A stretch of DNA of 14,851 nt from an archaeon (GCA_035289485.1 DATDXA010000038.1:1-14851), one strand, 5' to 3'; shown: positions 1,293 through 8,301, counted from the stretch's first letter. Notes: generated by a model not told the origin, from the sequence alone. Made by a program: numbers and translations.

Positions 1293-1379
1293 GTCAAGCC
1301 CATCGAGTCCTCAAGGACGAAGATGGGGTGCTTCCTCCCGACAAGCAGGTCGGGCTTGGCACCGGCACCGAACCCTGCT
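1293..1379 (+). ncRNA. structured intergenic element, copy 1 (hairpin plus pseudoknot motif)
   Basis: Hairpin CCCATC-GA-GTCC-TCAA-GGAC-GAA-GATGGG (1299-1327) is followed by GCTT-CCT-CCCGAC-AAGC-AG-GTCGGG (1330-1354). The latter is 19/25 identical to 6588-6612, with only compensatory differences. Confidence 0.55.
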
Positions 1380-1414
1380 GAGAAATATAAACCAAACTTA
1401 AAACAAAATCATGA

Positions 1415-1759
1415 ATGCGAAAAGATAGGGAACAACTCATTGAAGAAATAATAGACTCAGGCAATAAGATTATTGGAAGGATTGTCTTCACGCAAGACTA
1501 CTTGTCATTTGAAGCATTCTCTATCGGGCTGATTTCAATCATAAATGAAAAACCCGCAGAGATAATTCGTTTTGACTGCTCTATAAGAGAAAAGGTTAAT
1601 GTCCATAGGTTTTACAATAACCCTCCGACCAAGCACTACCTTGATTTGGAAAAAACCCCGGAAACCGCCCTTGAACTTTGGAATATCATCAGGGCAAACT
1701 GGCACGAATATTTGAGCAAATATAAGGAAAATCATAAGATAACCGATAAAGTTATATAA
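1415..1759 (+). CDS. hypothetical protein, TumE/DUF6516-like putative toxin
   Basis: 114 aa with EIIRFD...VHRFY and a C-terminal NWxxY, typical of small proteins encoded upstream of HVO_A0114-like HTH genes. AT-rich, with a TATA-like AAATATAA at 1383-1390. Confidence 0.55.
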   Translation: MRKDREQLIEEIIDSGNKIIGRIVFTQDYLSFEAFSIGLISIINEKPAEIIRFDCSIREKVNVHRFYNNPPTKHYLDLEKTPETALELWNIIRANWHEYLSKYKENHKITDKVI

Positions 1760-1760
1760 C
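1744..1760 (+). promoter_or_regulatory. candidate BRE/TATA promoter for the HTH gene
   Basis: CGATAAAG-TTATATAA lies about 30 nt upstream of ATG 1790. GTTATATAAC (1751-1760) is a perfect palindrome. Confidence 0.5.
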
Positions 1761-1789
1761 AGTATAAGTCAATTTAGTAGGCGATTCAA

Positions 1790-2143
1790 ATGAAAAAACT
1801 GAAAATCAAATTAGGCGGCGATGCAGCCAGGGATTTTTCCGAAATACTGCGCAGCCCATCCAAGGGCGAACCTGGAACCCGCGCATTGTACATCAAAAGC
1901 ACCAAAGAGCTTTATGAACTCTTTTCGCCAAAGAAAATTGAGATGCTCCGTTTATTGCTCTCTTACAATGGCAAGCCACAGATGATTACCGAAATAGCAA
2001 GGAAAACTCAAAGGAAGCAGGAGGCAGTGAGCCGCGATGCCATCGCACTGGAGCACTGGAACCTAATTGAAAAAATCCGTAAGGGCCGAACTGCGCTGCT
2101 GAAAGCAAAATACGACACCCTCGAAATCAGTCTCGCGCAATAA
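1790..2143 (+). CDS. winged-HTH DNA-binding protein (HVO_A0114-like), putative antitoxin
   Basis: LFSPKKIEMLRLL...ITEIARKTQRKQEAVSRDAIALEHWNLIE HTH pattern; 117 aa; directly follows the putative toxin. Confidence 0.7.
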   Translation: MKKLKIKLGGDAARDFSEILRSPSKGEPGTRALYIKSTKELYELFSPKKIEMLRLLLSYNGKPQMITEIARKTQRKQEAVSRDAIALEHWNLIEKIRKGRTALLKAKYDTLEISLAQ

Positions 2144-2192
2144 ATCTGTGCTGAGCAACCTATTTATTCCCCATTCGCTATAATTTCTTCTC

Positions 2193-2915
2193 ATGCAGGC
2201 GATAATCATGGCGGCGGGGCGCGGAGTGCGCCTGCGGCCAATCACAGAAAGGGTTCCAAAATGCATGGTAGCGGTAAAGGGCAAGCCGCTTCTTGAACGC
2301 GTGCTCACAAGCGTGATTTCTGCAGGAATCACGGAACTGAACCTTGTTGTGGGATATAAAAAGGAAATCATTGAGGACCACTTCGGCCCGAAATTTGAAG
2401 GCGTGAAAATAACCTATTTTGTCCAGCAAGAGCCAAAGGGAACAGCGCACGCCGTGAGCCTTTTGCAGGATTACATCAAAGGAAAATTCTTCGTTGCCAA
2501 TGCGGATGTGCTTGCAAGCACAAGAGATTACAAAAGGCTTATTCGGGTTGATGAGGATGAGGAGTTCAATGGGCTTGTGCTCGCGCGCAAAGACCCCGAG
2601 CCATGGAAATACGGAGTGATCAAAACAAAGGGCAACATGGTCGATTACATTGTCGAAAAGCCAAACCCTGACAAGGAGCCAAGCAACCTTGTGAATGCTG
2701 GCATTTACCGCTTCGATTCGGATTTCATGGACGCGGTGATGGCGACCGGCCTTTCGCAGCGCGGGGAATACGAGCTCGTGGATTCGATGAGAAATTATAT
2801 TGCGGCGGGAAAAAGGGTTGATTGCGTGCGCTGCGAGGACAAGTGCGTGGATATTTCAGACATTGAGGATCTCAAGATGGCGAACCAGATGGATGAGGCG
2901 ATTTTTCCCAAATAA
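2193..2915 (+). CDS. sugar-phosphate nucleotidyltransferase (RmlA/GlmU-like NTP transferase domain only)
   Basis: AAGRGVRLRPITERVPK signature plus QQEPKGTAHA, YGV, VEKP, NAGIY and RGEYEL. There is no C-terminal hexapeptide domain. Confidence 0.92.
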   Translation: MQAIIMAAGRGVRLRPITERVPKCMVAVKGKPLLERVLTSVISAGITELNLVVGYKKEIIEDHFGPKFEGVKITYFVQQEPKGTAHAVSLLQDYIKGKFFVANADVLASTRDYKRLIRVDEDEEFNGLVLARKDPEPWKYGVIKTKGNMVDYIVEKPNPDKEPSNLVNAGIYRFDSDFMDAVMATGLSQRGEYELVDSMRNYIAAGKRVDCVRCEDKCVDISDIEDLKMANQMDEAIFPK

Positions 2916-2925
2916 AATTTTTTAA

Positions 2926-3615
2926 TCAGGGGGTTTTGAAAATCTGCCCGGGCTTTAGCACCACAGGAATTGTCTTGAGTATGCTCTTTTCTATGCGCGC
3001 CTTGAAATCATTCGCATCCGCCTGGATAGTGTCAAAAGAATTGTAATGCATTGGGATTACATATTTTGGCTTCATTGTCTTTGTCGCGCGCACGGCATCA
3101 ATTACATCCATTGTTGAACTCCCGCCAATCGGAAGTATTGCAATGTCACTTTTTATTTCTGAAAAAGAATCCATAAGCGCGGAATTTCCGGCGAAGAAAA
3201 CCGATTCATCATCCTTTTGGAAAATATAGCTTACAGGATAGAAAGAATTCGGATAATGAGCCCCGCTAACAGAGATTTTTACGCCGCGCAGGTTGAATGA
3301 ATCGCCCACTTTTACGTTGTGCTTTAGTTCGCTTGGCAAATCAAGCTCATTCAGAACGGATTCGTGGCCAACGACAACTGCTTTATCGCGGTTTGCGATA
3401 ATATTTACCGCTGCCTTGTCGAAATGGTCAAAGTGCTCGTTGCTCACGCAGATGGCATCAATGCCGGTAATCTTGTCCGCGCTGAGCGGGCACTTTGCAA
3501 GCACCTTGAAGGTAGTCTCTCCTTCTGGCAGCCCGATAAAAGGGTCGACAAGGATATTCACGCCGTCAAAAGAAATTTTGAAAAAAGAGTGCCAGAGGTA
3601 TTGTACCTTCATCAT
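2926..3615 (-). CDS. metallo-beta-lactamase-fold hydrolase (UPF0173-like)
   Basis: HSFF, ILVDPFI, SNEHFDH, AH, LPIGGSSTMD and IPMHYNSF motifs. The start may be the second Met (3612). Confidence 0.88.
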   Translation of the reverse strand: MMKVQYLWHSFFKISFDGVNILVDPFIGLPEGETTFKVLAKCPLSADKITGIDAICVSNEHFDHFDKAAVNIIANRDKAVVVGHESVLNELDLPSELKHNVKVGDSFNLRGVKISVSGAHYPNSFYPVSYIFQKDDESVFFAGNSALMDSFSEIKSDIAILPIGGSSTMDVIDAVRATKTMKPKYVIPMHYNSFDTIQADANDFKARIEKSILKTIPVVLKPGQIFKTP

Positions 3616-3735
3616 TCCACAATAAGAGTAACAGTTCTGTGGTATTTAAGTGTTTCCGGTGGGAAAAACGAAAAAATGCAGCTGGGGAGCGCATGAAAAT
3701 ATTTTCCTGTGCTATTCCGGAAAAATTTCCGCGCC

Positions 3736-3776
3736 TGCCAAAATGCCAAACCAAGGGGCGAACCTTGCCAAACCAA
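3736..3776. repeat. direct repeats TGCCAAA(CCAA) in a divergent promoter region
   Basis: TGCCAAACCAA at 3744-3754 and 3766-3776 (22-bp period), plus TGCCAAA at 3736-3742. Confidence 0.5.
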
Positions 3777-3813
3777 TAAACATTTAATAGCCAAGCGGGG
3801 CAATAATAATTGC

Positions 3814-4596
3814 ATGAAAAGAATGGCAATAGTGCTGCTGATTATTTTGCTCTCGCAAGTGGCAGCGGCTCTAAAAGTCGACAAGCTCGAGATAGAAGTG
3901 GTTGTTGATGGAGAGGGTTTTGCATCCGTTACTGAAAACTATTTCCTCTCATTCATAAGCGATTTTGAATTCAATGATTTCAAGCAGAATGCGAACAAAA
4001 ATTCGGCAAGCCTGAGCGTTTGGCAAGCCAGTTATGATTTCTTCAAGCCACATTTCACAGAATCCGCCGGGAACAAAATCACATCATCTGGAATAATTTT
4101 TGATGAAACATCAAAGACGCTCCAGCTAAAATACGGGCTCACGGAAAAATTCGCAACCCTGCTGACAAGCGAACAGAGAAGCGACACATATTCCATTCCG
4201 GATTCCGCGCTTGCGGCATTCAACATTGCAGGAACAATTGTGATACCTGAAAATACGAGAATAGTAATAAGGCTGCCGGAAAACACGGAAGTTGACACAG
4301 AAAAGCTCCCGGACAAAGTTGAAGTGGCATTTGGCAATCAGATAGTTCTAAACGGCATTCAAAGCAACTCAATCAATATACAATACAGCCTGTTAAAGCC
4401 CATAGCGCCGAAAAGCGATGAAATAGTGCAGGGAATTTCCAACACATACATTTTCGCGCCGCTTGCGGTGCTGCTTCTCATCGGCACATATGCCAAGCGC
4501 GAGGAAATAGAGAAGATTGTTGAGGACTACATTGTGAACCACTCGGAAATGAAGCCGCGCGAATCCGAGGAAATAGAAATAGATTTCGGGAAATGA
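3814..4596 (+). CDS. hypothetical secreted/surface protein with C-terminal membrane anchor
   Basis: Start re-assigned to ATG 3814 because MKRMAIVLLIILLSQVAAA is a signal peptide. The body looks beta-rich, followed by TM helix YIFAPLAVLLLIGTYA and an acidic tail. Confidence 0.8.
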   Translation: MKRMAIVLLIILLSQVAAALKVDKLEIEVVVDGEGFASVTENYFLSFISDFEFNDFKQNANKNSASLSVWQASYDFFKPHFTESAGNKITSSGIIFDETSKTLQLKYGLTEKFATLLTSEQRSDTYSIPDSALAAFNIAGTIVIPENTRIVIRLPENTEVDTEKLPDKVEVAFGNQIVLNGIQSNSINIQYSLLKPIAPKSDEIVQGISNTYIFAPLAVLLLIGTYAKREEIEKIVEDYIVNHSEMKPRESEEIEIDFGK

Positions 4597-4598
4597 AT

Positions 4599-5021
4599 TC
4601 ATTTTTTCTTTTTCTTAAAACTCCTGTGCTTTTTTATCTCGCCGTGCATCGCCCCTGAAAAATCCGCCCCGATTTTTTTGAGGATGTTCTGGACGCTGTA
4701 ATCGTCCGTGAGCACGGTGAATTTTTGCCCGCGGCCCTTGAACTCCGAGGCGAGCGCAACAATGGAAATGTCGGCTTCGCTTAGGCGGGTTCCGGACTGC
4801 CCGCACTTTTCGGTGGTTTTCTGTATCGAAAGCGGGCAGGGGTCCTGAATAATGAGTGAACCGGTGGACGCGGCATTTTCCGCCAAGAGGCGGCTTCGAA
4901 AATCACGCCATTCCGCAAACACCTTTGAAGTGGTGTAATGCTTGTTTTTGGCGTCAAATGAGAAAAGCTCGTCATTTAGGAGCGCTGAGGCGTCAAGAAG
5001 GTAAATCATCACAATTGCCAT
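4599..5021 (-). CDS. nob1: Nob1-family PIN-domain endonuclease (no zinc ribbon)
   Basis: YLLDASA, VFAEWRD, LSEADISIVALA and LTDDYSVQN form the Nob1 PIN signature. The start may be at 5009 (MIYLLD). Confidence 0.85.
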   Translation of the reverse strand: MAIVMIYLLDASALLNDELFSFDAKNKHYTTSKVFAEWRDFRSRLLAENAASTGSLIIQDPCPLSIQKTTEKCGQSGTRLSEADISIVALASEFKGRGQKFTVLTDDYSVQNILKKIGADFSGAMHGEIKKHRSFKKKKK

Positions 5022-5079
5022 TTAGAAGAGGCTGTTGAACGCTTTTAATTTTATTGATGCACTAATATGAAGTGTTTGC

Positions 5080-6540
5080 ATGGATTTGAAGGCAATTGCA
5101 GCGGCCCTTAGTGACATTGAAAAGAAAACCCTGCGCGCGCTCACAAAAGAGCCGGCTTCGCTTGAAGAGGTTTCTTCTAGGGCCGGAATAGGGATTGATT
5201 CGGTGCGCCGCGCATCATCATGGCTTTCTGAAAAGGGACTTGCTAAAACAGACGAAAACAAAACGAAAAAACTTGTTCTGACATCTGCGGGGAAGGACGC
5301 GCTTGATCGGGGCCTTCCGGAAAAGAGGCTTTTGCAAAAGCTTTCTGAAAAAGGCGCGCTTGATTTTCTCTCAGCCAAGGAACAAACAGGCCTTGGAGAG
5401 CAGGAATTTAACGCAGCACTTGGAGTGAACAAGCGCAAGGCATTCATTGCAATACTGCGCTCTCAGCCCCCGAAGATTGAGATTACTGAAGTCGGAAAGG
5501 AATTCCTCCCGCAGAAAACCCCAGAAGAAAAGGCGCTTTTGGAAATTTCAAAATCCGGAAAAGCCGACGCTTCACTTGCAAAAGAACTAATTACGCGCGG
5601 GCTTGCAGAGGAGAAGGAAGAATCTGCATGGAAAATGAGCGCAACTAAGGAGGGGGAGAATGTTCTTGAGCTAAAGGAGTTCTCAGCGCAGCGCGCATAC
5701 AATATCGAAGACCCTGTGCCAAAAATTCACATAGGAAAAAAGCAGCCATATATCCAGTTCCTAAACACCATCCGCAGAAAGCTCACGGAGCTCGGATTTA
5801 AGGAAATGGAGGCGCCCCTAATTGTTCCCGAGTTTTATAATTTTGATGTGCTCTTCCAGCCGCAAAACCACCCCGCGCGCACATGGACCGATACTTACCA
5901 ACTCAAGGCGCCCAACAGCGGCAAACTAGCCGACAGAAGAGCGGTGCAGGCGATTAAGGCAGCGCACGAAAACGGGGGAGTTTCAGGCTCGAGCGGATGG
6001 GGGTATAGGTGGAGCGAGGAAATTGCATCAAGAATTATGCCAGCGGCACATGGCACGGCGCACACGGCAAGGCAGCTCACAAAAATCACACAAAAAGACA
6101 TACCTTGTAAGTACTTCACAATTGCAAGATGCTTCAGGCCCGATGTTTTGGACGCCACGCACCTTATTGAATTCAACCAAACAGATGGCTTCATACTTGG
6201 AGATAACCTCAATTTCCGCCACCAGCTCGGCGTTCTTGAGCAATTCGCAAAGGAAATCGCGGGAGCGCAGGAAGTAAAATTCCTGCCGGATTATTATCCT
6301 TTCACAGAGCCCTCTGTGCAGCTCTCCGCAAAGCACCCAACGCTTGGATGGGTTGAGCTTGGAGGCGCCGGGATGCTGCGCCCGGAAATTCTCAAAAACC
6401 TTGGAATAAACTGCATGGGCTTTGCATGGGGAATAGGAATTGACCGCCTTGCGATGTTTAAGCTCGGGATAAAAGACATCAGATATCTCTTCTCGGATAA
6501 CCTTGAGTGGCTGCGCAAAACTCCTCAGGTGATTGAATGA
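5080..6540 (+). CDS. pheS: phenylalanine--tRNA ligase alpha subunit (archaeal type)
   Basis: N-terminal winged-helix extension, NFDVLFQPQNHPAR, RCFRPDVLDATHLIEFNQ, YYPFTEPS and GIGIDRLAM. Confidence 0.98.
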   Translation: MDLKAIAAALSDIEKKTLRALTKEPASLEEVSSRAGIGIDSVRRASSWLSEKGLAKTDENKTKKLVLTSAGKDALDRGLPEKRLLQKLSEKGALDFLSAKEQTGLGEQEFNAALGVNKRKAFIAILRSQPPKIEITEVGKEFLPQKTPEEKALLEISKSGKADASLAKELITRGLAEEKEESAWKMSATKEGENVLELKEFSAQRAYNIEDPVPKIHIGKKQPYIQFLNTIRRKLTELGFKEMEAPLIVPEFYNFDVLFQPQNHPARTWTDTYQLKAPNSGKLADRRAVQAIKAAHENGGVSGSSGWGYRWSEEIASRIMPAAHGTAHTARQLTKITQKDIPCKYFTIARCFRPDVLDATHLIEFNQTDGFILGDNLNFRHQLGVLEQFAKEIAGAQEVKFLPDYYPFTEPSVQLSAKHPTLGWVELGGAGMLRPEILKNLGINCMGFAWGIGIDRLAMFKLGIKDIRYLFSDNLEWLRKTPQVIE

Positions 6541-6632
6541 AGCAGGAAATGGTATTGCCTCTGTCCCTTCGCAGAAGGGACAAGTCCGCTCCCTTCCGAG
6601 GAGCAGCTCGGACGCCACAGGTGATTGAATGA
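6520..6632 (+). repeat. duplicated pheS 3' end (direct repeat, 92-bp period)
   Basis: ACTCCTCAGGTGATTGAATGA (6520-6540) vs ACGCCACAGGTGATTGAATGA (6612-6632): 19/21 identical, last 15 identical, and both read TPQVIE*. Confidence 0.85.
6562..6617 (+). ncRNA. structured intergenic element, copy 2 (hairpin plus pseudoknot motif)
   Basis: Perfect 9-bp hairpin TGTCCCTTC-GCA-GAAGGGACA (6562-6582), then GCTC-CCT-TCCGAG-GAGC-AG-CTCGGA (6588-6612), then CGCCA. Confidence 0.55.
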
Positions 6633-6645
6633 GAGGTGAAATCTG

Positions 6646-8301
6646 ATGCCGACAATTAATATCAGCAAAAAGGATCTCGAAACCCTTCTTGGAAAAAAAC
6701 TTTCAATGCAGGAGCTTGCGGACGCGCTGCTTTATGTGAAGGGGGAAATTGACGGCGCAGAAGGGGACAGCATAAAAGTGGATGTTAAGGAAACCCTGCG
6801 CCCGGATCTTTGGAGCACCGAAGGAATCGCGCGCGAACTCCGAGCGAAGATGGGAATGCAAAAAGGGCTCCCGGATTACAAGGTTGCAAAGGCGAAAGTT
6901 TCCTGCACAATAGATCAGACAGTTGAAAATGTGCGGCCGTTTATTGCCTGCGCAATAGTGCGCAACGTAAAAGTTACGGAAAATTTTCTTATACAGATGA
7001 TACAGCTGCAGGAGAAAGTGGGAACAAGCTTTGGCAGAAAAAGAAAAGAGGCCGGAATTGGATTGTACGATTTTGAAAAGATGACTCCGCCGGTTTTCTA
7101 CAGGGGTTATAAGGACAAGGAAATAGAATACGTCCCGCTCGAATACAAGGTGAAAATGCGCCCAAGCGAAATACTTTCTCAGCACCCCAAAGGAAAAGAA
7201 TTTGGGCACCTGCTGAAAGGATTTGACAGGTATCCGATTGTGATTGATTCGGCTGGAGTAGTGGCATCCATGCCGCCCATAATCAATTCCGAAGCCACAG
7301 GAAAAATCACGGAAAAAACAAAAGACATTTTCATCGAATCCACAGGATATGATTGGGAAAAGGTCAATATTGCGCTTAAGGTCATATGCATGGCCCTTGC
7401 AGATAGGGGCGGAAAAATAGAGGGCGTTAAAATAATTTTCCCGAAAACAAAAACGTACCCAAAAAAGCCGATTGAAACGCCCTTTTTTGGCACAAAAAAA
7501 ATCACCGTGCCCATAGATTATTTCAGGCAGGTCTCCGGGCTTGAACTTACGGAAAAGCAGCTCGTGCCGCTGCTTGAGCGCGCGAGATACTCGGTGAAGA
7601 AAAAGGGCGCATCACTCGAACTTGAGTACCCTGACTTTCGCAATGACATAATGCACCCAGTTGATGTTGTTGAGGACATGCTAATTAGCTATGATTACAA
7701 CAAAATCGTCCCGCAAAGGCCAAAGCTTGCGGTCGTAGGTGAAGAGCTTAAGCAAACCGCATACATTGACAAGATCCGTGATGTTTGTGTTGGAATGGGA
7801 TTGCAGGAAGTTCTCACGTTCAATTTGACTTCGCGCGAAAAGCAGGAGAAGATGGTTTTACTAAAGGGCGAGGAGTTTGTTGAGATTGCAAACCCTGTTT
7901 CAACTAACTGGAGCATACTGCGCAAAAATATTTACCCCGAGCTTTTGGAATTTCTCTCCAAAAACAAGCACGCTGAATACCCGCAGGGGATATTTGAAGT
8001 GGGAACAGCGCTCGCACTTGACAGTTCAAGCGATATCAAGACAAGGCAGATGAATAAGCTCTGCATTGTAATGTCCGGGCGCGAGTTCGGGTTCACGCGG
8101 ATAAAATCGGTGTTCGAGGCGGTTTGCCACGAGCTTGGAAAGAAATGCACACTTAGCGCAACGAGCAATCCTTCGCTTAAGGATGGCAGGCGCGGAGCAA
8201 TCGGCGGAGATTCGAAAGGAATACTCGGAGAACTCTCAGAGCAGGTTGCGAAGAACTTCGGACTTGAGAATGCGGTTGTTGTTCTGGAAATGGAAGTTTA
8301 A
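6646..8301 (+). CDS. pheT: phenylalanine--tRNA ligase beta subunit (archaeal type)
   Basis: MPTI start, RPDLWSTEGIAREL, SMPPIINS and RNDIMHPVDVVED. SD GAGGTGA upstream; follows pheS. Confidence 0.98.
   Translation: MPTINISKKDLETLLGKKLSMQELADALLYVKGEIDGAEGDSIKVDVKETLRPDLWSTEGIARELRAKMGMQKGLPDYKVAKAKVSCTIDQTVENVRPFIACAIVRNVKVTENFLIQMIQLQEKVGTSFGRKRKEAGIGLYDFEKMTPPVFYRGYKDKEIEYVPLEYKVKMRPSEILSQHPKGKEFGHLLKGFDRYPIVIDSAGVVASMPPIINSEATGKITEKTKDIFIESTGYDWEKVNIALKVICMALADRGGKIEGVKIIFPKTKTYPKKPIETPFFGTKKITVPIDYFRQVSGLELTEKQLVPLLERARYSVKKKGASLELEYPDFRNDIMHPVDVVEDMLISYDYNKIVPQRPKLAVVGEELKQTAYIDKIRDVCVGMGLQEVLTFNLTSREKQEKMVLLKGEEFVEIANPVSTNWSILRKNIYPELLEFLSKNKHAEYPQGIFEVGTALALDSSSDIKTRQMNKLCIVMSGREFGFTRIKSVFEAVCHELGKKCTLSATSNPSLKDGRRGAIGGDSKGILGELSEQVAKNFGLENAVVVLEMEV

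Follow-up and report, generated by a model that had tools for sequence, protein, structure and literature searches.

Introduction

Bacteria are well known to harbour small interspersed repeats, which are simple palindromes or relics of inverted-repeat transposons. Among them, MIRU are short units of 50–100 nt that lie in operons in sense orientation, are often arranged in tandem and have edges touching stop and start codons; we know of no MIRU with a covarying pseudoknot, insertion at tRNA ends or long target duplications. Short interspersed nuclear elements (SINEs) are non-autonomous, originate from small structured RNAs or are linked to them, and show a 3' junction that is exact, a 5' junction that is ragged, target duplications of variable length and a sense bias; to our knowledge, no SINE-like element has been described in archaea. 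H-type pseudoknots are familiar as single-copy, gene-specific operators or Shine-Dalgarno (SD)-sequestering riboswitches such as E. coli rpsO/S15, SAM-II and preQ1. Here, we report a computational analysis of a 14,851-nt contig of an archaeon (GCA_035289485.1, DATDXA010000038.1:1-14851; contig C38 of the 1.156 Mb genome G000), below called the window, which carries two copies of a short repeated element ending in an H-type pseudoknot, one downstream of rnz (RNase Z) and one between pheS and pheT (phenylalanyl-tRNA synthetase (PheRS) alpha and beta). On balance, and with some reserve, we regard these copies as members of a lineage-specific family of non-autonomous mobile elements of DPANN-type archaea, that spread by way of a single folded strand, most likely of RNA and exact in its 3' end, and whose copies are tolerated and in part co-opted by the host.

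Like MIRU, the element is short, intercistronic, sense-oriented and arrayed, with edges at stop and start codons, but MIRU are bacterial whereas the element is archaeal. With SINEs it shares the exact 3' and ragged 5' junction, occasional microhomology, variable duplications and the sense bias; it differs from them in having no A-rich tail and in the lack of a reverse transcriptase in 23 genomes (63–95% complete). About 10 of 62 aligned copies hold an SD sequence and abut a start codon in the manner of the pseudoknot operators, yet the element is a repeat of about 30 copies with varied neighbours, and most copies hold no SD. Target duplication does not accompany the insertion of IS200/IS605 and REP elements. 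REPs are moreover simple palindromes, whereas the element combines an asymmetric hairpin with a pseudoknot, is flanked by duplications of 10–46 nt and is unlinked to Y1 transposase genes. As two reports (PMC2817692, PMC3116915) describe them, REP/BIME and REPIN, which are associated with RAYT (Y1) transposases, are numerous short extragenic repeats with structure; they are transcribed together with the operons that contain them, presumably influence mRNA stability and depend on mobilisation in trans. MITEs (miniature inverted-repeat transposable elements) such as Correia, ERIC and RPE are presented in PMC10969869 as small, non-autonomous and interspersed, co-transcribed and sometimes in frame in genes, and one copy of the element likewise lies in frame in the gene for S15. 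Full-text literature searches, with subscription journals and supplements outside their reach, returned no description of such an element.

A covarying pseudoknot recurs in the genome and its relatives

The initial annotation of the window, made from its sequence alone, had singled out two 25-mers on the given strand (GCTT-CCT-CCCGAC-AAGC-AG-GTCGGG, 1330–1354, copy 1; GCTC-CCT-TCCGAG-GAGC-AG-CTCGGA, 6588–6612, copy 2), located 39 nt behind the TGA of rnz and 48 nt behind that of pheS, and had interpreted them as a selected H-type pseudoknot, or two alternative helices, of no recognised RNA family. Sequences and distances were read correctly: the two 25-mers match at 19 of 25 positions, and all six differences are three compensatory swaps (S1.4, S2.1 and S2.6) within two interleaved helices, S1 and S2. 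The absence of a known family also held, as Rfam 15, whose families include hammerhead, twister, pistol, hatchet, HDV, riboswitches and HEARO, gave no matches in the window at the gathering threshold, and a search of nine element loci at E ≤ 10 returned only adjacent tRNAs and noise.

Scanning the whole genome with a fixed geometry for perfect 4+6 bp pseudoknots revealed 21 instances, 13 of them with CCT, compared to 1–4 instances, none with CCT, in each of five Markov-1 random genomes; with 21 against 1–4, recurrence of the pseudoknot is thus beyond chance. While an initial descriptor yielded 11 matches in the genome, a covariance model (R1) that includes S2 and two helices of a 5' module, P1 and P2, but excludes S1, retrieved 32 copies at E < 0.01; relaxing the threshold to E ≤ 1 raised this to 36 matches, among the weakest of which is a spurious antisense overlap. 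Such a genome scan had been suggested in the initial annotation, and it indeed uncovered further covarying copies. Anchoring 36 loci by hand (35 model matches and one from BLAST) gave 29 loci without an insertion in L2, comprising 25 distinct helix sequences, in which 244 of 250 cells were paired and nine of ten pairs occurred as at least two Watson-Crick types.

We then aligned 62 members from this genome and its relatives (alignment A4). In this alignment, which was fitted to P1, P2 and S2 and favours those helices, 93.8% of 1,230 pair cells were paired compared to 68.3% in shuffles (0/500 shuffles as high) and 30–41% in slid controls; both sides had changed in 19 of 21 pairs, with a covariation score of 0.62 versus 0.19. 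Both-sided changes were seen in seven of eight P1 pairs and in all six pairs of S2, which was 97.5% paired. S1 was 95.5% paired with both-sided changes in 4/4 pairs, although it was not modelled. Because S1 lies outside the model and nevertheless covaries, the pseudoknot is real and the reading as two alternative hairpins falls away; judged from this covariation, the two interleaved helices form an H-type pseudoknot, as initially proposed.

The pseudoknot is the 3' module of a larger element

Comparison of the flanks of the first 11 descriptor hits, and of further copies obtained with BLAST or a less strict descriptor, revealed a whole unit of 50–130 nt with the pseudoknot as its 3' module. 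The 25-mer is therefore not the unit but its 3' third, and the stable hairpins preceding the two motifs (1299–1327 and 6562–6582), which fold as claimed, are not of unrelated sequence but constitute the P1/P2 module of one larger element. In ten canonical copies, the consensus order is a leader (GYGAAGYMA), P1 (8 bp), GA, P2, GAA, the 3' strand of P1 and the pseudoknot, the latter running S1, L1, S2, S1', L3, S2' with CCT or ACC/TCC/CCC as L1 and AG, AA, TT and others as L3. S1 has 4 bp, the C-rich L1 3 nt and S2 6 bp; L2 is absent or replaced by an inserted hairpin, and L3 has 2–3 nt beginning with A. In the 29 copies without an L2 insertion, L1 was always 3 nt and L3 2 nt, except for 3 nt in three copies; these lengths are of the usual order and may suffice for L1 to cross S2 and for L3 to cross S1.

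The second or third position of P1 is often non-Watson-Crick, and the P2 hairpin is optional. Some copies have an extra hairpin between S2 and S1'; in others, GA is separated from the final A of the loop by a domain of about 50 nt that turns the loop into a three-way junction. Near-invariant and unpaired among the 62 members are GA (59/61 and 58/58), GAA (48/52, 46/48 and 55/57), L1, which is C-rich, and the A that opens L3. The GA/GAA module is absent from several well-paired copies, including copy 2 of the window. The leader is moderately conserved across the 62 members, and its columns had no pairing partner by mutual information (maximum 0.35); pairing of the leader with S1 was predicted in the fold of copy 1 and is not conserved among copies.

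We compared this anatomy with known RNA motifs, of which the kink-turn (the L7Ae site) and part of the hammerhead resemble the GA/GAA loop. Kink-turns consist of a three-nucleotide bulge 5' of tandem G·A pairs on the same strand; in the element, the covarying pairs 24-115 and 25-114 fix the register of P1 and leave a single extra base, the A 3' of GA, so that GA/GAA is not a kink-turn arrangement. The hammerhead core is a conserved three-way junction, of which the element has only GA...GAA; the third core strand is absent, and Rfam returned no hammerhead match. Boxes of C/D-box and H/ACA small RNAs were absent by inspection. An omega-RNA of TnpB/IscB was rejected since no TnpB gene was detected in the genome, which is an incomplete assembly, and passages of a report on archaeal omega-RNAs (PMC12558985) contained nothing resembling the element.

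Copies carry the marks of insertion

To compare orthologous sites, we inspected congeners of the archaeon. The pheS-pheT junction is empty and only a few bases long in three of them (G002, G005 and G006), whereas it is occupied by different family members in the source genome and two others (G000, G001 and G003). The copies in G001 and G003 are of an ACCT...AGGT type, in which S1' and L3 make up the SD and S2' ends at the start of pheT. Downstream of rnz, similarity stops at the gene end in all five congeners.

Direct duplications of 10–46 nt flank a substantial share of the copies. At a score of at least 10, duplications were found in 18/62 copies compared to 2.1% of 3,782 mismatched flank pairs, and at a score of at least 12 in 15/62 compared to 0.5%; one of the 18 is an array artefact. 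The downstream duplicate starts at +0 to +2 from S2' in 16/18 copies, while the upstream duplicate ends 0–54 nt before P1, most often 23 nt, and leader-like microhomology was present at the junction in two cases. Duplicated segments include gene tails with stop codons, regions of SD and start codon, and tRNA 3' ends. Such duplications of variable length, with an exact 3' and a ragged 5' edge, match the junction anatomy of SINE-like retroposons.

Distant copies can be nearly identical: copy 2 and a copy on C57 agree at 100% over 51 nt, and other pairs at 96% (55 nt) and 93% (60 nt). Head-to-tail arrays are present. With the covariance model, the element was detected in 19 of 22 same-family genomes, with 2–27 matches each, and in a phylum-wide sample it was present in 46 of 151 genomes. 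Several copies per genome occur in families f1, f2 and f29, in contrast to f3 (0/15), f20 (0/12) and f22 (0/17). The empty sites, duplications, near-identical copies, arrays and patchy distribution together indicate an inserted, spreading element. This favours what the initial annotation had offered as an alternative, namely the core of a small mobile repeat family, which is borne out by 32 or more copies, empty orthologous sites, flanking duplications and an uneven distribution.

One array, at locus L225 (G005:C5), lies behind a gene tail, and each of its at least three units consists of a copy of the gene tail followed by the element.

The 3' edge coincides with RNA features on the sense strand

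Orientation was assessed with a crude gene caller based on codon usage (85% coding). In 26/34 cases, a copy shares its strand with the upstream neighbour, and only 3/36 copies are antisense to both neighbours. This sense bias, together with copies that border on the 5' ends of tRNAs and on start codons of the given strand, identifies the given strand as the working strand. The initial annotation had considered the strand undecidable from the base pairs; wobble pairs indeed do not settle it, but genomic context does.

Across copies, a sharp boundary falls at the last S2' base, where tRNA +1, start codons, the next array unit or the downstream duplicate begins. Four copies in the source genome end within about one base of the +1 position of tRNA-Trp, -Lys, -Leu and -Ile(UAU); among the 62 members, six are flush with a tRNA (spacer -2 to +1), and a seventh (L072) has a 3-nt spacer. 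Other genera carry copies before what appear to be the same tRNAs (Trp and Ile-UAU), with different but fully compensated helices. At tRNA-Ile(UAU) (C36:4669-4743) and its relatives (L048, L064), an element copy represents the 5' leader in two genomes of the genus, and a TATA-like box, about 50 nt upstream of P1, is common to these loci. Since the tRNA-linked copies are flush with +1 and the genome encodes RNase P RNA (91.6 bits) and Rpp29, they are probably transcribed 5' leaders that RNase P could release. In a further 12/62 copies the edge directly meets a start codon, which is a doubtful TTG call in two cases; most of the remaining ones (about ten) contain GGAG(G) within S2/S1'/L3 at proper spacing. 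A separate SD and start codon lie further downstream of 9/62 copies, and 35/62 are located at gene 3' ends, in duplications or in arrays.

Pfam analysis of 50 open reading frames (ORFs) flanking the copies revealed mainly varied core operons: rpoB''/rpoB'/rpoA', NusA-KH/S12/S7, S15, S3Ae, L24e/NDK/dUTPase, S9/RpoN, Rpp29...L14, PheS/PheT and SufC/SufB, besides HMG-CoA reductase, PCNA, MCM and a V-ATPase subunit. Genes beside the antisense copies encode LemA/M48, a glycosyltransferase and an EamA transporter. Gene functions around the copies thus share no common theme. A regulator dedicated to tRNA-handling genes, as envisaged in the initial annotation from the two genes upstream of the motifs, does not agree with neighbours that include RNA polymerase, ribosomal proteins, NDK, SufBC, HMG-CoA reductase, PCNA and transporters. 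Tabulating the neighbours gave many functions and no specific link to tRNA handling, and because they are mainly varied core operons, the association seen in the window is a coincidence. A riboswitch or gene-specific leader was rejected for the same absence of a single gene function among the 50 ORFs.

Two of these neighbouring genes have peculiarities of their own. The S15 gene contains, in frame within its N-terminal region, a copy whose S2 is broken (C31:79457-79517; L025:1986-2049, minus strand); it is 96% identical over 55 nt to an intergenic copy on C18, and the Pfam S13_N match to the gene product begins only at residue 28. An intein splicing domain is present in the MCM helicase gene that lies downstream of another copy (C51:284-3817, L040). 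In more distant families (L079 in G032, L080 in G038), the 5' module or the pseudoknot is combined with another partner module beside tRNA genes, for example with a plain hairpin flush with the tRNA or with a convergent tRNA, which hints at modular evolution.

A proposed mobile element that appears to be read as a folded strand

Helices kept compensated in different subfamilies and genera, together with the sense bias and the coincidence of the 3' edge with RNA features, imply that selection sees the folded sense strand. Both helices of the pseudoknot being compensated, selection appears to read a folded single strand, something that transposase-driven MITEs do not need. A repeat that bears a pseudoknot, with both helices kept by compensatory change in about 60 copies from many genera, stands out in an ultra-compact archaeal genome, and the exact 3' and ragged 5' edges with duplications of 10–46 nt point to a copying mechanism not documented in archaea. 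For the host, the element rewires intercistronic regions of essential operons (RNA polymerase, ribosomal proteins, PheRS) and supplies SD sites and tRNA leaders. The covariance model would permit annotation of the family and its entry into RNA family databases.

We propose the following course of events. The element would be co-transcribed in sense with host genes, as suggested by the orientation of the copies and the promoter box at tRNA-Ile, and its transcript would fold as the covariation predicts. The 3' end would be set exactly at the last S2' base, where the edges lie at the DNA level; at tRNA loci, RNase P, given its function and its presence in the genome, would release the element with this exact 3' end. 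Judged from the junction anatomy, a staggered break at the edge of a gene or tRNA might then receive a copy primed at this 3' end, resulting in a target duplication of 10–46 nt and a ragged 5' junction. Resident copies would be tolerated or co-opted as tRNA 5' leaders and intercistronic spacers, and about ten may have become translation-initiation regions with the SD held in S2/S1'/L3.

A more specific form of this scheme is speculative, and we consider it rather improbable: a SINE-like archaeal element in which tRNA-leader copies act as masters, RNase P, cutting at tRNA +1, frees a stable RNA of hairpin and pseudoknot whose 3'-OH is exact, and a polymerase other than a canonical reverse transcriptase, or an external one, copies it into staggered breaks at gene boundaries. 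If true, it would represent the first case among prokaryotes of an interspersed repeat mediated by RNA.

Several observations weigh against mobility or against an RNA intermediate. No recognisable duplication was found in 44/62 copies. Among those without duplications are the tRNA-linked copies, which recur before the same tRNAs (Trp, Ile-UAU) in other genera, and this recurrence fits an old host function equally well. DNA contigs from four non-source sequencing runs yielded no empty-site allele; they either stop within copy 2 or continue across copy 1, and the element breaks assemblies at its copies. In the searched family genomes, which are incomplete assemblies (63–95% complete), no mobilising enzyme followed the element: RVT_1 reverse transcriptase was present in 0/23, and Y1_Tnp was found in 9/23 and was missing from three genomes with 16–19 copies, with the element lying within 1.5 kb of only 1/10 Y1 loci. 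In the source genome, itself an incomplete assembly, we detected neither Cas1 nor TnpB, for which PF07282 gave only a sub-threshold match of 17.4 bits. Wobble counts (24 G·U versus 20 A·C) favour neither strand and lend no weight to RNA, and we infer transcription, in vivo folding, processing and the RNA 3' end of the copies from DNA sequence. Viral contigs contained at least 115 matches to a 14-base pattern, and none of the 80 loci examined was a real member by the covariance model.

Known modes of mobilisation fit poorly. A casposon-type duplication of 14–15 bp was rejected given that no Cas1 was detected in this incomplete assembly and that duplication lengths vary. A MITE is at odds with the lack of terminal inverted repeats, as the leader is unpartnered and S2' pairs with S2 instead of the 5' end, and one moved by a DDE transposase additionally with the absence of a fixed duplication length (10–46 nt) and of a matching transposase.

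The most serious alternative, which we nevertheless hold to be unlikely, is a host cis-regulatory RNA module, that is, a translational operator, a protein-binding pseudoknot or a punctuation mark for mRNA processing or stability. Such a module would have been recruited into highly expressed operons and tRNA leaders, spread by duplication or recombination, and been kept by selection locus by locus. Copies inside core operons (rpoB''-rpoB'-rpoA', NusA-S12-S7, PheRS alpha-beta and others) are in line with this, as are the SD-like GGAG(G) placed in S2/S1'/L3 by about 10/62 copies that end at a start codon, and the tRNA-Trp and tRNA-Ile(UAU) leader copies of other genera with their compensated helices and conserved promoter box; near-invariant unpaired GA/GAA, L1 and L3 are what one would expect of a protein or tertiary contact. 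Neighbours without common function speak against it, however, and so do copies at convergent gene ends, antisense to both neighbours (3/36), inside the S15 coding sequence and in arrays. The orthologous sites of congeners are empty, and target duplications together with a patchy distribution are marks of insertion rather than of a conserved regulon.

Quite improbable, in our view, is a single-stranded-DNA transposon end or REP-like unit read by an HUH (Y1/RAYT-type) transposase, with the sense bias reflecting the direction of replication. Y1_Tnp occurs in this genome as a fragment and in 9/23 family genomes, the element is strand-asymmetric with a defined edge, and the G·U and A·C counts favour RNA no more than DNA. 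In contrast, the element lies near only one of the ten Y1 loci, genomes with 16–19 copies show no Y1 gene, and duplications of 10–46 nt are frequent whereas IS200/IS605 and REP insert without them; a REP/REPIN-RAYT (Y1) link was rejected, as Y1_Tnp occurs in 9/23 genomes and only 1/10 Y1 loci has the element within 1.5 kb. The Y1 (IS200/IS605-type) fragment of the source genome, at C40:8017-8184 (L100), runs off the contig end and is unlinked to the element.

Least probable, and in our estimate very doubtful, is a self-cleaving ribozyme or other nuclease signal that cuts after S2' to give mature tRNA 5' ends and leaderless mRNAs: a 3' edge flush with tRNA +1 (6/62), start codons (about 10/62) and the next array unit, the invariant GA/GAA loop with other conserved loop nucleotides, and peripheral helices that vary in modular fashion as in natural ribozymes would all suit it, but no Rfam ribozyme family matched even at E ≤ 10, GA/GAA is missing from several well-paired copies including copy 2, the RNase P RNA present suffices for tRNA ends, and a normal SD and start codon follow further downstream in 9/62 copies.

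The two copies in the window

The window genes adjoining the element, named by Pfam, are rnz (377–1291, TGA 1289–1291), pheS (5080–6540, TGA 6538–6540) and pheT (6646–8301, ATG at 6646), and all features given below are on the + strand. Copy 2 begins directly behind pheS with a 5' part (6541–6587) made up of a variable leader (6541–6561), a hairpin (6562–6582) and the linker AGTCC (6583–6587), its 5' module being a simplified hairpin without P2. The pseudoknot (6588–6612) pairs 6588–6591 with 6601–6604 (S1) and 6595–6600 with 6607–6612 (S2), with CCT as L1 and AG as L3, and its nearest relative is the tRNA-Lys leader copy (96% over 26 nt). Perfectly matching 15-nt direct repeats bracket this copy; the upstream one (6526–6540) is the end of pheS including the TGA and the downstream one (6618–6632) is followed by the pheT SD and the ATG, and with one mismatch the repeat extends to 18 nt (6523–6540 and from 6615).

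Copy 1 starts with the leader GTGAAGTCA (1288–1296; consensus GYGAAGYMA), which overlaps the rnz stop codon at 1289–1291. Its 5' module (1297–1329) consists of P1 (1297–1304 with 1322–1329), an internal loop with GA (1305–1306) opposite GAA (1319–1321), and the P2 hairpin (1307–1318), and has a predicted folding energy of -31.1 kcal/mol (z -3.1). In the pseudoknot (1330–1354), 1330–1333 pair with 1343–1346 (S1) and 1337–1342 with 1349–1354 (S2), L1 is CCT (1334–1336) and L3 is AG (1347–1348); its nearest relative is the tRNA-Trp leader copy (96% over 24 nt).

Copy 1 is followed by a 24-nt tail, CTTGGCACCGGCACCGAACCCTGC (1355–1378), which represents a separate short repeat. This motif holds GGCACC twice, lies directly 3' of three element copies (on C38, C4 and C5), also stands alone (C27:297-320 and C5:18838-18857) and is found in the congeners G002 and G005. 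Behind copy 1, it is predicted to be able to pair with L3 and S2', in competition with S2.

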